The position numbers and the translations under genes were made by a program. Positions 21,768 to 27,121 of a stretch of 51,990 bases of DNA are shown piece after piece. Below the pieces are notes generated by a model, which was given only the letters and a program-made list of their open reading frames with translations, was not told the DNA's origin and ran no database searches. The stretch covers positions 1 to 51,990 of the forward strand of contig JBFMCP010000023.1 of assembly GCA_040754455.1 (NCBI GenBank), read 5' to 3'. The stretch's first letter is position 1, and the number at the start of each line of letters is the position of its first letter. Source of the DNA: Nitrospirota bacterium (GTDB lineage Bacteria > Nitrospirota > Thermodesulfovibrionia > Thermodesulfovibrionales > Dissulfurispiraceae).

Positions 21768-22775
21768 TTAAAATTGCTTCAAGAATCTGATATCGTTCTC
21801 GAAGAACAATCGTATATCGTCCATGGAGTACTTCAGCATGGCGATGCGCTCCACGCCCATGCCGAAGGCAAAGCCGGTGTATTCTTCCGGGTCATATCCC
21901 ACATGCTCGAAGACAGCGGGATGTACCATTCCTGCACCGAGGACCTCGAGCCAGCCCGATCCTTTGCACACTCTGCAGCCCGTGTTGTTGCAGAGAATAC
22001 AGCCGATATCCACCTCAGCCGAGGGCTCGGTAAAAGGGAAGAAGCTCGGCCTGAACCGTACCGGCGTATCAGGGCCGAACATCTGGTGCAGGAATGCCTC
22101 GAGAATGCCTTTCAGATGGCTAAAGGTGATATCTTTATCGACCATAAGCCCCTCCACCTGGTGGAACATGGGCGTATGGGTAATGTCCGCATCGCACCGA
22201 TAGACCTTGCCGGGGGCGATAAACTGTACCGGCGGCTTTCTCTTTTCCATGCCCCTCACCTGTACCGGTGAGGTATGGGTCCTCAAGACAATGTCCTTGC
22301 TGATGAAGAAGGTGTCCTGCATATCCCTGGCAGGATGCTCCTTGGGAAAATTCAGTGCCTCGAAGTTGTAGTAGTCGAGCTCCACCTCGGGCCCCTCCTC
22401 GACAATGAATCCCATTCTGACGAAGATATCGACGATCTCCGCAAGCGTCCTGCTGAGGGGATGCACGCTGCCAAAGGGAGTGAATTTGCCGGGCAGGGTG
22501 ATATCGATCGACTCTTTCATCAATTGCTGTCTGACCGCCTCGCCTTTGAGCGAAGACTCCCTGGCATCGATCTCCTGCTCAATGAGCTGCTTGAGCTCGT
22601 TCACCTTCTTGCCGAAGGCGGGCCGCTCATCGGCAGGGATTGACGAGAGCGATTTCAATTGGTCGGTAATGAGCCCTTTTCTGCCGAGGTACTTTACCCT
22701 GAGCCGGGAGAGATCGTCAGGTGTAACGGCGGATGACAGCTCCTCAAGGAATGTTCGTCTCAGATCGTCGATCAT
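21768..22775 (-). CDS. pheS: Phenylalanine-tRNA ligase alpha subunit
   Basis: HPARDMQDTF, LRTHTSPVQ, FHQVEG, FPFTEPS, GFAFGMGVER. Confidence 0.97.
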   Translation of the reverse strand: MIDDLRRTFLEELSSAVTPDDLSRLRVKYLGRKGLITDQLKSLSSIPADERPAFGKKVNELKQLIEQEIDARESSLKGEAVRQQLMKESIDITLPGKFTPFGSVHPLSRTLAEIVDIFVRMGFIVEEGPEVELDYYNFEALNFPKEHPARDMQDTFFISKDIVLRTHTSPVQVRGMEKRKPPVQFIAPGKVYRCDADITHTPMFHQVEGLMVDKDITFSHLKGILEAFLHQMFGPDTPVRFRPSFFPFTEPSAEVDIGCILCNNTGCRVCKGSGWLEVLGAGMVHPAVFEHVGYDPEEYTGFAFGMGVERIAMLKYSMDDIRLFFENDIRFLKQF

Positions 22776-22788
22776 TGCTTAAACGCTG

Positions 22789-22830
22789 ATGCACGGAACA
22801 GGAGAGAATGTCTCCGCCTGTTCCGTGCAT
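22789..22830. other. Perfect 14-bp stem-loop between rplT and pheS
   Basis: atgcacggaacagg-N14-cctgttccgtgcat, no U-tract. Confidence 0.6.
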
Positions 22831-22852
22831 AAGAGATCATGGTATCGTTGTA

Positions 22853-23206
22853 CTATTTCTTTTTTGCGACTTGGGCTGCGAGCTCGCTGAAGCTCTTGAA
22901 GTCATGGTATGCCAGATCGGCAAGGGCCTTCCTGTTCATGGCAATGTTGGCCTTCTTCAATCCGTCCATGAACTGGCTGTAGGTCATGTCGATAGACCTG
23001 AGCGCTGCATTGATACGTGCGATCCAGAGTGCCCTGAACTCGCGCTTCTTGAGCTTTCTATCCTTGTATGCAGCAATAAGGGCCTTGTCAACGACCTGCG
23101 TTGCGACCTTATACAGCCTGCTCCGCGCGCCGAAGTAGCCCTTCGCACTCTTTACTACCTTTTTATGATATCGTCTGGTCTTAAAGCCACCTTTTGCCCT
23201 CGGCAT
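22853..23206 (-). CDS. rplT: 50S ribosomal protein L20
   Basis: AKGYFG...[20 protein letters not shown]. Confidence 0.97.
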
Positions 23207-23347
23207 GCTCTCCTCCTTATAGGAACGAAAAACTTCTCTTTTAATTTAAGAGCTTACATTTTAGCAACTGAACGGCAGAGGCGTCAAGTGGCGCCTCCAA
23301 AAAAGAGCCCCCATGCATTGCTGAGGACCACTGCTGAACAAACGGAT

Positions 23348-23548
23348 TTAAACCATATAGGGCAGCAGCTTTTTTACATTATCGTGCTGTGCCTTGGGTA
23401 CGAGTGTGCTCTTCCTGAGATTTCTGCCCCTCTTCGAGGGCTTACCGGTCAGGAGATGGCTCTTATATGCCTTGTTCCTCTTTATCTTACCGCTGCCCGT
23501 CACCTTGAATCTCTTGGCAGCGCCCCTGTGGGTCTTCAGCTTTGGCAT
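23348..23548 (-). CDS. rpmI: 50S ribosomal protein L35
   Basis: [30 protein letters not shown]. Confidence 0.97.
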
Positions 23549-23678
23549 ACGATCCTCCTTTCTTCTCTGCTCTGAGGTAAAAAACAGATAGTCAGTAGCA
23601 AGGTCACGCAAAGAGAACTATTATACCTTTTCTCCTCTGACTTTTGCTACTGGCTATCTGGGGACTATCTTTCAGCGG

Positions 23679-24191
23679 TTATTTGCTGCTCGGTGCAATC
23701 ACCATGGTAATATGGTTGCCCTCAAGCTTCGGCTGTTGCTCTATACTGAATTTTCCGTCCAGGCCGGCAAGGAGCTCGGTCATCTTCTGGAACACCTTCA
23801 TTCCGAACTCAGGCCTCACGATCTCGCGTCCTCTGAAGTACATGGTGACCTTTGCCTTGTCTCCCTCGTCGAGGAATCTCCTGATGTTCTTCACCTTGAG
23901 CTGGAGATCGTGGTCGGTGATCTGGGGCCGGACTTTCACTTCCTTGACATCGACCGTCTTCCGGGCCGTGTGCTTCTTGCTCATCTGGTATTTGTACTTA
24001 CCAAAATCCATCACCCTGCATACGGGCGGTGTAGCGCCGGGAGCAACCTCGACAAGATCATATCCCCGCTCCCGCGCGATCCGCAGCGCTTCGTTAATGG
24101 GGACAATCCCGAGTTGCTCGCCCTCATCACCGATAAGCCTCACCTCTCTGGACCTGATGCCTTCATTGACTCTGACAGTTTCTTTACTGAT
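23679..24191 (-). CDS. infC: Translation initiation factor IF-3 (probable AUC start)
   Basis: VNEGI...VRLI, PPVCRVMDFGKYKY, FRGRE; GGAGG lies 7 nt before ATC at 24191. Confidence 0.95.
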   Translation of the reverse strand: MSKETVRVNEGIRSREVRLIGDEGEQLGIVPINEALRIARERGYDLVEVAPGATPPVCRVMDFGKYKYQMSKKHTARKTVDVKEVKVRPQITDHDLQLKVKNIRRFLDEGDKAKVTMYFRGREIVRPEFGMKVFQKMTELLAGLDGKFSIEQQPKLEGNHITMVIAPSSK

Positions 24192-24276
24192 GTTCACACC
24201 TCCAAAATAAAGTTAGAAGCAGGAGTACAATATCCTCTCCTTCCTTCGTACGTATAGATCGACTATTTCTTACTTC

Positions 24277-26169
24277 TTACTTTCTGCTTGTTATTTCATC
24301 TTTTATTATCGCCAGAAATTCATCAATTGTAAACGGTCCGATATTCTCGCCGCTCCGCTTCCGCACCGTTATCTTCTGCTCCGCTGCCTCTTTGTCGCCG
24401 AGAATGATCAGGTAGGGGATCTTCCTGAGCGTCGCCTCTCTGATCTTGTAGCCGATCTTCTCGTTATCGAGGTTCAGCTCAGACCGTATGCCCGCCTGCT
24501 TCATCGAACGGTAGATGTTCTTTGCATAGATATCGTGCTTTTCCGATATCGTCAGAATCGCCACCTGTACCGGCGAGAGCCAGAGCGGGAAAAGACCTGC
24601 ATAGTGCTCGATCAGCACGCCGAAGAAGCGTTCAAGGGATCCCATCAGCGCACGGTGGATCATGATCGGCCGGTGATCCTTGCCGTCGCTGCCCCGGTAG
24701 CTCGTGTCAAACCGTTCAGGGAGATTAAAGTCGACCTGTATGGTGCTGCACTGCCACGATCTGTTCAGGACATCCTTTATCTTTATATCGATCTTGGGCC
24801 CGTAGAAGACACCCTCACCAGGGTCGACCTCGTACTTCAGCCCCTTTTTCTCCAGTGCCTGCTTCAAGGCATTGGTCGCCCGCTCCCAGTTTTCCGGAGT
24901 ACCTACATATTTCTCGGGCCGGGTAGAAAGATAGATGTCATATGAATCAAAGCCGAAGGTCCTCAGAATAATGAGGGTAAAGTCGAGAATATTCAATATT
25001 TCTTCCTCGATCTGGTCCTCTCTGCAGAATATATGGGCATCGTCCTGGGTGAATCCCCGCACTCTCATGAGGCCGTGCAGCGTTCCCGAGCGCTCAAAGC
25101 GATAGACCGTCCCCAGCTCAGCATATCTGATCGGCAGTTCCCGGTAGCTCCTCAGGGAACTCTTGTAAATGCCTATGTGGAAGGGACAGTTCATCGGCTT
25201 GAGCTCATACGCAACATCTTCCACCTCCATCGGCGAGTACATGCTCTCGCGGTAGAAGTCCCAGTGGCCGCTCTGCTGCCAGAGGTGCAGCCGCGCGATA
25301 TGGGGAGTGAAGAGTATTTTGTAATCCGACTTCTCGTGCTCGGCCCTCCAGAAATCCTCTATGGTCCTTCTGATAATCGCACCGTTCGGATGCCACAGGA
25401 TAAGGCCGGGGCCGATGTCATCGCTCACGCTGAAGAGGTCGAGCTCCTTGCCGATCTTCCGGTGATCCCGCTTCTTTACCTCTTCAAGAAAATCGAGATA
25501 TGCCTTCAACTCCTCTTTGGTCTCAAAGGCGGTCCCGTAGATCCTCTGGAGCATCTTCCTCTTTTCGTCGCCGCGCCAGTAGGCGCCGGCAACGCTCAGG
25601 AGCTTGAATGCCTTCACCCGCCCTGTCTTCGTCAGGTGCGGTCCCCTGCAGAGGTCCACAAACCCATCTTCCTCATAGAGCGAAACGGTATCGTCAGTGA
25701 TCTCCTGGAGCAGCTCGACCTTGTACTGCTCTCCCTTGCTCTTGAAGAGCGCTACTGCCTCCTGCTTCGGGAGCGTCCTTCTCACAAAAGGGGTGTTTTT
25801 CTTGATGAGCTCCTTCATTCGCTTCTCGATCTTTTCGAGATCTTCGGCGGTGAACGGAGCATCTCTGTCGAAGTCGTAATAGAAACCGTCTTCCGTAGCA
25901 GGGCCTATGGCGACCTTTGTATCGGGAAACAGTTCCTTTACGGCATGGGCCATGATATGAGAGGTGCTGTGGCGATATATCTCTTTCCCCTGCTTTGAGG
26001 CAAAGGTGATGATCTCTACGGCTGATCGGGGATCAAGGGATTCTATCGATGTAAGGTCTTTCAGTTCGCCGTCGACCTTGAGGGCGAGGGCTTTTGAGGA
26101 CTCAATCTGCTTTTTAAGCTCGGTCGCGTCTACTTCTTTTTCGGCGCCGCCGGGAAAGATAAGTTTTAT
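24277..26169 (-). CDS. thrS: Threonine-tRNA ligase (probable AUA start)
   Basis: RHSTSHIMAHAV, DLCRGPH, KPMNCPFH, RVRGFTQDDAH; the frame stays open 72 codons upstream of the track start, up to GGAGGA-N6-ATA. Confidence 0.95.
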   Translation of the reverse strand: MKLIFPGGAEKEVDATELKKQIESSKALALKVDGELKDLTSIESLDPRSAVEIITFASKQGKEIYRHSTSHIMAHAVKELFPDTKVAIGPATEDGFYYDFDRDAPFTAEDLEKIEKRMKELIKKNTPFVRRTLPKQEAVALFKSKGEQYKVELLQEITDDTVSLYEEDGFVDLCRGPHLTKTGRVKAFKLLSVAGAYWRGDEKRKMLQRIYGTAFETKEELKAYLDFLEEVKKRDHRKIGKELDLFSVSDDIGPGLILWHPNGAIIRRTIEDFWRAEHEKSDYKILFTPHIARLHLWQQSGHWDFYRESMYSPMEVEDVAYELKPMNCPFHIGIYKSSLRSYRELPIRYAELGTVYRFERSGTLHGLMRVRGFTQDDAHIFCREDQIEEEILNILDFTLIILRTFGFDSYDIYLSTRPEKYVGTPENWERATNALKQALEKKGLKYEVDPGEGVFYGPKIDIKIKDVLNRSWQCSTIQVDFNLPERFDTSYRGSDGKDHRPIMIHRALMGSLERFFGVLIEHYAGLFPLWLSPVQVAILTISEKHDIYAKNIYRSMKQAGIRSELNLDNEKIGYKIREATLRKIPYLIILGDKEAAEQKITVRKRSGENIGPFTIDEFLAIIKDEITSRK

Positions 26170-26308
26170 GGCTATTCCTCCAATAAGAAAATTATTTTAT
26201 ATCATAACTGATTTGCAATGCGCTATTCAATGCAATTATAGCGTAAATACAGCACCATGGTCGCCCCGGGGGTTGGGTGAGGCAACAGATATGTTCTACA
26301 CTATACCT

Positions 26309-27121
26309 ATGGGACAGTTCATCGTCTTTACCGACCTTGACGGTACCCTCCTGGACCATACCTACTCCTGCACTGCGGCGTTGCCGGCACTGCGGCTGTT
26401 AAAAGAGAGGAAGACCCCTCTTGTGCTTTGTTCAAGCAAGACAAAGGCAGAGATCGAGCACTACCGGAAAAAGCTCGACAACCGGGATCCCTTTATAGCG
26501 GAGAACGGGGGAGGTATTTTCCTGCCCAAAGGCTATTTCTCTTTCTCAGACATCGAGGGCTACACCTTTGTCGAGGATGGTGAATATCTCATGCTCAGAC
26601 TTGGTACTCCTTATACAGCGCTGAGGAAGGCATTACGGGAATTGCGCTCGCAAGGATTCAGGGTAAGGGGGTTCGGCGATCTGTCGGTCAGCGAGATTGC
26701 ACGGTTGACCGGTCTGAGTAATGATGAGGCAGCAATGGCGCGGGAGAGAGACTTCGACGAGCCCTTCATCTTCGAAGGGGATAACGAGCAGGCACTCACC
26801 GAAGCGATCGCGGCAAAGGGGTTCAACGTGATCAGGGGAGGTGCATTCTTCCATCTCCTCGGCAGCAGCGACAAGGGCACGGCGGTCTCGCTGCTGATCG
26901 ATATGTACAAGAGGCATTACGGCGGATGCACAACAATAGCTCTGGGCGACGGCCCCAATGATCTTCCCATGCTCGAAAGGGTTGACCATCCCGTAATCGT
27001 GCAAAGGACAGACGGCACCTACGATCCACGCATAACCCTTCCAGGGCTCATCAAAGCAGAAGGGATCGGGCCCGAGGGATGGGACAAGGCAGTGATCAGC
27101 TTATTATCGAGGATTCATTAA
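26309..27121 (+). CDS. mpgP: Mannosyl/glucosyl-3-phosphoglycerate phosphatase (HAD IIB)
   Basis: FTDLDGTLLD, CSSKTKAE, AENGG, ALGDGPNDLPML. Confidence 0.85.
   Translation: MGQFIVFTDLDGTLLDHTYSCTAALPALRLLKERKTPLVLCSSKTKAEIEHYRKKLDNRDPFIAENGGGIFLPKGYFSFSDIEGYTFVEDGEYLMLRLGTPYTALRKALRELRSQGFRVRGFGDLSVSEIARLTGLSNDEAAMARERDFDEPFIFEGDNEQALTEAIAAKGFNVIRGGAFFHLLGSSDKGTAVSLLIDMYKRHYGGCTTIALGDGPNDLPMLERVDHPVIVQRTDGTYDPRITLPGLIKAEGIGPEGWDKAVISLLSRIH

Follow-up and report, generated by a model that had tools for sequence, protein, structure and literature searches.

We analyzed a 51,990-nucleotide window, the whole of the stretch from position 1 to 51,990 of contig JBFMCP010000023.1 (assembly GCA_040754455.1) of a Nitrospirota bacterium of the order Thermodesulfovibrionales, with respect to the start of thrS, which encodes threonyl-tRNA synthetase (ThrRS) and lies on the minus strand next to infC, the gene for initiation factor 3 (IF3). 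Judged from the reading frame and from alignment with relatives, translation of thrS almost certainly begins at an AUA codon (26169-26167). Comparison of the corresponding loci indicates that a start of the type AUU, AUC or AUA (hereafter AUH) is a clade-wide trait of a large subclade of Thermodesulfovibrionia and not a mutation of one genome, and the pattern of substitutions at the codon suggests that this non-canonical start is under selection. An earlier view of the AUA codon, confined to a single genome, is thereby widened to a start conserved across the order and in several sister families.

The thrS frame opens after an in-frame TAA (26199-26197) and reads NNFLIGGIA-IKLIFPGGAEKEVDATELKK..., with IKLIFPGG... 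following from the ATA. As the original prediction had claimed, the frame is open from this TAA to an ATG at 25953 that falls within the conserved RHSTSHIMAHA motif, which we confirmed on the minus strand, and both the listing of open reading frames (ORFs) and a start-codon script found no ATG, GTG or TTG in the 82 intervening codons. The longest ORF with one of these three starts spans 24277..25953 (558 aa), and initiation at ATG 25953 would cut 72 residues from ThrRS. The Shine-Dalgarno (SD) sequence described earlier, GGAGGA at 26181-26176, is separated from the ATA by the 6-nt spacer ATAGCC (26175-26170); the ATA lies 7 nt past the last G of GGAGG. Two other AUH codons occur in frame nearby, an ATT at 26184 that overlaps the SD and an ATA at 26175 that abuts it. 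As expected of a bacterial class II ThrRS, Pfam assigned to the product the editing-associated domain tRNA_SAD (E 2.5e-14), the class II core tRNA-synt_2b (E 1.1e-45) and the anticodon-binding domain HGTP_anticodon (E 6.5e-22). The N-terminus may be called TGS-like from its position and its alignment to relatives; Pfam reported no TGS domain in ThrRS at E <= 0.001. Residues 1-60 could be aligned with the N-terminal ends of ThrRS from other bacteria, and identity to the ThrRS of relatives is 64-81% across residues 1-630.

We compared the start in a first sample of 30 order-level loci, comprising the window's genome (G000) and 29 relatives from 8 families. At the aligned, SD-backed position the codon was ATT in 17 loci, ATC in 6, ATA in 5 and ATG in one, with one locus ambiguous; the relatives, including the same-genus genome G001, show ATT, ATC or ATA at this codon and not ATG, which the original prediction had named as evidence against an AUA start. 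Several relatives (L002, L007, L018) have an in-frame stop 4-5 codons ahead of the AUH codon, which leaves no alternative thrS start possible there. A GGAGG-type motif recurs among the relatives 4-9 nt before the AUH codon, counted from its last G. In many relatives (L015, L016, L018, L023, L025, L026 and the f31 loci L166-L177) ThrRS is shorter, at 578-600 aa, for want of the N-terminal ~57 residues (the TGS-like part), and these short forms retain the AUH start. Where the ORFs are 578-594 aa and match from about residue 58, the start is an ATT 6-7 nt after GGAGGT.

The comparison was widened to 125 genomes, in which AUH and canonical candidates were weighed by the best SD match at an aligned spacing of 4-11 nt and doubtful loci were read by eye. 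Within the order (73 genomes, 13 families) the rule assigned an AUH start to 63 (ATT 38, ATC 13, ATA 12), and reading of the sequences brought this to 68 of the 73, with 3 canonical and 2 undecided (L017, L113). Among the five loci that turned AUH on reading (L006, L016, L124, L180, L185), four have a degenerate GGGGG(T/C)-type SD, while L016, with the SD GGAGGT, had been misclassed by the rule owing to a read-through stop. The canonical starts are those of L028 (an ATG directly before the ATA), L194 (ATG) and L197 (TTG). The other families of the class contributed 28 genomes, of which 19 have an AUH start (f15, 3/3; f31, 12/12; f34, 1/1; f35, 3/3), 7 are canonical (f14, 4/4; f30, f32 and f33) and 2, both of f29, are undecided. 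No convincing AUH start of thrS was found in the 24 genomes, from 8 families, of other Nitrospirota classes; L142 and L208 were flagged as AUH by the rule and were rejected on reading, which gives ATG where their canonical kin (L136, L209) start. Among 80 named loci that included other phyla, those of other phyla had ATG, GTG or TTG candidates throughout, by script classification only.

The third base of the aligned codon turns over readily. When the five start labels are placed on a maximum-likelihood tree built from the 30 full-length ThrRS, they need 10 changes compared with a shuffled mean of 12.0, so that the third base appears to interchange almost freely among T, C and A; the sole ATG on this tree is an added upstream codon. 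G was never the third base at the aligned codon in any genome surveyed, and the three canonical order-level genes use a neighbouring or different codon. Since ATA to ATG is a single transition, the absence of G is the pattern expected of purifying selection against AUG. The retention of ATT behind GGAGGT in lineages without the N-terminal domain is a second sign of selection. We give no P value, because the surveyed genomes are kin.

The neighbouring infC gene, 85 nt downstream of thrS, has a start of the same class. Its SD GGAGG (24203-24199) is followed by 7 nt and then by ATC (24191-24189), and an in-frame GTG at 24197 sits within the SD and is not kept in frame in relatives. In 39 relatives' loci examined, IF3 was present in 37 and the alignment reached residue 1 in 29, one of which (L029) is repeat-shifted; in the 28 unambiguous relatives the codon at residue 1 is ATA (24) or ATC (4), after GGAGGTG, and the remaining loci show, by eye, an ATA a few bases past the SD. 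None of the 37 IF3 loci has ATG at the start position. The AUC start previously ascribed to infC is supported by the SD and ATC here and by ATA or ATC in relatives. E. coli has internal infC promoters, of which a promoter-like site in the 3' end of thrS (Table 1) is reminiscent. Downstream of infC there is a weak match to the Rfam L20-Deltaproteobacteria leader (22893-22943, minus strand; 21.7 bits against a gathering threshold of 42.8, E 0.44).

Other AUH-started genes were sought in the whole assembly by a screen with a six-frame contrast, which looked for AUH or CTG codons that are backed by an SD and precede the first canonical codon by 13 codons or more. Genes with a nearer canonical codon escape this screen, so that the result is a lower bound, and the output needs manual reading. 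Among 3737 ORFs judged coding it yielded few credible AUH cases. One of them is a long hflX gene, which has an ATC behind AAGGAGG: the aligned codon in 30 order-level loci is ATA in 18, ATC in 10 and ATT in one, with one shifted by a codon (ATC), and in 26 of these loci a canonical codon is absent from the vicinity (relatives, L247-L290). An AUH start of hflX also occurs in 4/4 sister-family genomes and in 5/5 genomes of other Nitrospirota classes, f14 having ATG, which makes it older than the thrS trait; on these alignments an AUH start on this ribosome-splitting GTPase looks phylum-wide. The first canonical codon of rsfS is residue 59, and its aligned codon in 30 order-level loci is ATA 19, ATC 2, ATT 1, TTA 4, CTA 1, GTA 1, GTC 1 and ATG 1 (relatives, L217-L246 and L291-L300). 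The SD-backed codon of rsfS is TTA in 7 loci (4 of the order, 3 of sister families); some other loci have CTA, GTA or CTG there. AUH is kept in 22/30 order-level relatives at the start of a yacP-like gene and in 18/30 at that of trpB, the rest having ATG, GTG or TTG. Weaker cases were an ATC-led 300-aa ORF without a Pfam match and a CTG-led cyclopropane-synthase gene. Taken together, thrS belongs with a few other AUH genes, and the most strictly conserved of them (infC, hflX, thrS) act in translation, although genes of other functions are included as well. As an explanation of AUH, a special initiator tRNA was dropped: the genome has three CAU tRNAs, one of which has the standard initiator features (CAU anticodon, three G-C pairs and a 1:72 mismatch).

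Table 1. Coordinates of the features discussed. Positions are those of the window, except for genes on other contigs (C) of the same genome (G000), for which the corresponding locus (L) is given where available.
Feature	Position	Strand	Remarks
thrS coding sequence	24277..26169	minus	630 codons and TAA stop, read from ATA 26169
Proposed thrS start ATA (AUA)	26167..26169	minus	Aligned with residue 1 of relatives' ThrRS
thrS SD GGAGGA	26176..26181	minus	Read from the sequence; GGAGG-type motif recurrent in relatives
First in-frame canonical start ATG	25951..25953	minus	Within the conserved RHSTSHIMAHA motif
ATT codon 22 of thrS	26104..26106	minus	Start in public protein record P0001; no SD ahead
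A/U-rich leader stretch AAAATAATTTTCTTATT	26182..26198	minus	Between -10-like motif and SD; putative enhancer role
Conserved -10-like motif GTTATGATATAA	26197..26208	minus	Holds the in-frame TAA stop; promoter-like matches and recurrence in relatives
infC (IF3)	23679..24191	minus	Pfam IF3_N and IF3_C; read from ATC 24191-24189
infC SD GGAGGTG	24197..24203	minus	Conserved in relatives
Promoter-like TTTACA-17-GATAAT	24305..24333	minus	10/12 consensus matches only; in thrS 3' end, upstream of infC
hflX, long, 549 aa	G000 C44:12731-14380 = L212:232-1881	plus	ATC behind AAGGAGG
rsfS	G000 C1:191459-191833 = L211:160-534	minus	ATA start; Pfam RsfS from residue 9
NYN/YacP-like gene	G000 C12:43794-44333	plus	ATT behind GGAGG-type SD; Pfam domain from residue 4
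trpB	G000 C20:20001-21197	minus	ATT behind GGAGG-type SD

The region ahead of the thrS start contains two promoter-like matches, TTGAAT-18-TATGAT (26230 to 26201) and TTGCAA-16-AATAAT (26218 to 26191). A motif of the form (G/A)GTTATGATATA, GTTATTATA or TTAATATA recurs ~30-38 nt before the start in many relatives, and in many family and order relatives a AAATTTTT-like run occupies the place of the A/U-rich stretch and is followed by the SD. The position of the -10-like motif would leave thrS with a leader of only ~25 nt, transcription being predicted to start near 26190-26196. A divergent ORF on the plus strand, HAD-phosphatase-like by eye, begins at ATG 26309 (MGQFIVFTDLDGTLL...), 139 nt from the thrS start, and the intergenic region must therefore house two divergent promoters.

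The leader of E. coli thrS contains an operator of tRNA-Thr-like hairpins to which ThrRS itself binds, and Bacillus thrS has T-box leaders. The present case resembles these two in that the same gene would be subject to post-transcriptional control at or before initiation, and differs from them in that no such element was seen here and the predicted leader is so short. No Rfam family matched the leader (26170-26320; cmscan at E <= 1 across 22500-27000, which covered the leader and operon and returned two sub-threshold matches only, both outside the leader), and the leader with the first codons of thrS folded no better than shuffles (z 0.55); on these two grounds, no operator or T-box of the E. 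coli or Bacillus thrS kind was seen. In outgroup Nitrospirota (L135, L142, L157, L158, L160, L203, L204), a conserved inverted repeat, GGCATCAT..ATGATGCC followed by TTTT, lies just ahead of or overlaps the thrS start and, when in frame, reads MMPFL/MPFLIS. A tRNA-Val gene precedes thrS in f31, a sister family, as well as in other Nitrospirota. Because thrS stands behind a tRNA-Val gene in many outgroups, the repeat may be the terminator of that gene, and its candidacy as a mimic of the ThrRS operator was set aside in favour of this probable role.

We think it probable, by analogy with infC, that the AUH codon of thrS is a weak start kept by selection, which holds down the synthesis of ThrRS and is, as at infC, probably IF3-sensitive. 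In E. coli, IF3 regulates its own synthesis through the AUU or AUC start of infC (PMC5499595). Under this proposal, fMet-tRNA would pair imperfectly with AUH and IF3 would destabilize such 30S initiation complexes, so that ThrRS synthesis per mRNA would be low, and lower still when free IF3 is high, while the strong SD and the A/U-rich leader would keep recruitment sufficient for an essential enzyme. As infC is likewise AUH-started (AUC or AUA), both genes would be expected to shift in the same direction with IF3. In reporters, AUA, AUC and AUU yielded 1-2% of AUG in E. coli (bioRxiv 10.1101/063800) and, where an extended SD precedes them, ~10% of AUG in S. aureus (bioRxiv 10.1101/2025.06.19.660503), and Thermodesulfovibrionia are among the lineages with the extended SD AAAGGAGGU (PMC10783764). 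Weak initiation in this organism, the promoter position, the leader length and the co-transcription of thrS with infC are features that we infer, and the IF3 dependence of thrS is drawn from the biology of E. coli infC. A broader possibility, which we hold only tentatively, is an IF3-sensed "AUH regulon" in Thermodesulfovibrionia, and in part in all Nitrospirota, that would include infC, thrS, hflX, rsfS (for the ribosome silencing factor) and perhaps the yacP/Rae1-like nuclease, all with AUU, AUC or AUA behind strong SDs. If it exists, free IF3 would set at once several factors of ribosomal-subunit availability and one aminoacyl-tRNA synthetase.

Alternative accounts of the start codon itself fare poorly. 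The assembly that holds the window is a draft of 92 contigs, and an ATG misread as ATA, or a decaying pseudogene, could in principle produce the codon. Such an error at 26167, which the original prediction had singled out for a check, is contradicted by public contigs from four runs, each of a different study (groundwater, soil and two hot-spring studies), which cover 26167-26169 without difference and agree on ATA; the listed differences fall only at 26029 and 26287. Three of the runs are clearly independent and one shares a study with a possible source sample. The AUH codons of relatives at the aligned position argue in the same direction, and initiation at AUA 26169 thus withstood comparison both with independent assemblies and with relatives. 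Against a pseudogene, the ORF is intact, the orthologue in the same-genus genome G001 is 79% identical over residues 1-629, and no second ThrRS gene turned up in the window's genome, which is scored 100% complete and has besides only one weak class II paralogue match at E 1e-5. We regard error or decay as exceedingly improbable. Nor do we expect translation to start at another non-canonical codon, that is, at ATT 26106-26104, ATT 26184 or ATA 26175, which seems very unlikely even though the public product P0001 (609 aa) begins MESSK and hence at ATT codon 22. That codon has no SD ahead of it and would forfeit the conserved IKLI(L/F)PDG N-terminus kept by relatives, the other two candidates collide with or adjoin the SD as noted above, and the NCBI records P0002 and P0005 of relatives begin at the codon aligned with 26169.

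What the AUH start does is less settled than where it lies. The main rival to an IF3-sensitive start holds that AUH is a fixed throttle, giving low constitutive ThrRS behind a strong promoter and SD with no physiological role for IF3. The AUH starts of trpB and the yacP-like gene, which have no obvious link to IF3, fit this account, as do the three order-level genomes that use ATG or TTG for thrS and the fact that limiting expression is an accepted reason for rare start codons (PMC5499595). We nevertheless consider it unlikely, since infC, for which IF3 feedback is established in E. coli (PMC5499595), keeps a codon of this class too, the strictest AUH genes (infC, thrS, hflX and in part rsfS) are all translation-related, and IF3, if it works as it does elsewhere, should act on initiation at every AUH codon. 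A further possibility is that start selection has relaxed through a divergent IF3, 16S rRNA or initiator tRNA, making AUH a near-normal start of little regulatory or limiting significance. Several AUH genes in one genome (thrS, infC, hflX, rsfS, the yacP-like gene and trpB) and the TTA, CTA or GTA found at the SD-backed position of rsfS in some relatives would be in keeping with relaxation, which is quite improbable given that only a handful of credible cases emerged among all the ORFs judged coding, that all of them lie behind strong SDs, suggesting compensation for weakness, that the initiator tRNA is standard, and that thrS avoids AUG though it is one mutation away, an avoidance that would make no sense if the two kinds of start had the same effect. 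The proposal of a weak, IF3-sensitive start has its own difficulties. The AUA start is assigned by sequence comparison, the AUH counts are not independent events in genomes that are kin, and IF3 discrimination in Nitrospirota is assumed from other bacteria. L028, L194 and L197 use ATG or TTG instead, which shows that AUH can be dispensed with. The occurrence of AUH on a metabolic gene, trpB (18/30), and its partial conservation on yacP (22/30) mean that AUH may merely set expression levels and not form a regulatory circuit. Finally, an AUA mRNA was as active as an AUG mRNA in vitro in an optimised context (PMC5499595), so "weak" is context-dependent.

Among known systems, E. coli infC provides a close parallel: a translation gene that has an SD and then an AUH codon, with the codon class kept while the third base varies, in the same thrS-infC gene neighbourhood, and with the mechanism that we propose for thrS (PMC5499595). 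The present case differs in that the gene is thrS, that both genes of the pair carry AUH and that IF3 dependence is put forward by analogy. E. coli pcnB, the second confirmed non-canonical AUU case in that organism (bioRxiv 10.1101/063800), is similar in that its AUU keeps the protein, poly(A) polymerase, scarce; in contrast to pcnB, the AUH of thrS is held across an order and beyond. Conserved non-canonical starts with extended SDs have likewise been described for S. aureus and B. subtilis ccpN (AUA) and for S. aureus cvfC1 (AUU), citZ (AUA) and infC (AUA) (bioRxiv 10.1101/2025.06.19.660503). These differ from thrS in gene and phylum, and they were mapped by ribosome profiling, whereas the thrS start was placed by comparison only. 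The term "thrS" is absent from the main text of bioRxiv 10.1101/2025.06.19.660503.

Public records disagree on where thrS begins. The record P0001 of this contig's ThrRS (609 aa, MESSK...) starts at ATT codon 22, two NCBI records of relatives (P0002 and P0005) have the aligned AUH codon as their start, JGI and ENA calls are extended to a TTG inside the SD, and further records begin too late, at internal ATGs. The N-terminal domain is therefore wrongly annotated in many entries. A full-text literature search, with subscription journals outside its scope, found no paper describing a non-canonical thrS start, and like searches for Thermodesulfovibrio start codons and for AUU starts of hflX, rsfS and infC returned nothing relevant. 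As far as searched, then, the AUH start of thrS is undescribed, yet it is implicit in some public records.

Taken together, these comparisons point to a real, conserved non-canonical start of thrS, of the infC/pcnB/ccpN type and with a plausible link to IF3. Apart from infC, few conserved AUH starts have been documented in bacteria (pcnB, ccpN, cvfC1). Here an essential aminoacyl-tRNA synthetase keeps AUH in roughly 87 of the 101 sampled genomes of one class, adjoining an AUH-started infC and in the company of AUH-started hflX and rsfS. Thus, thrS would be a natural test case for IF3 fidelity as a regulatory input beyond the factor's own gene.

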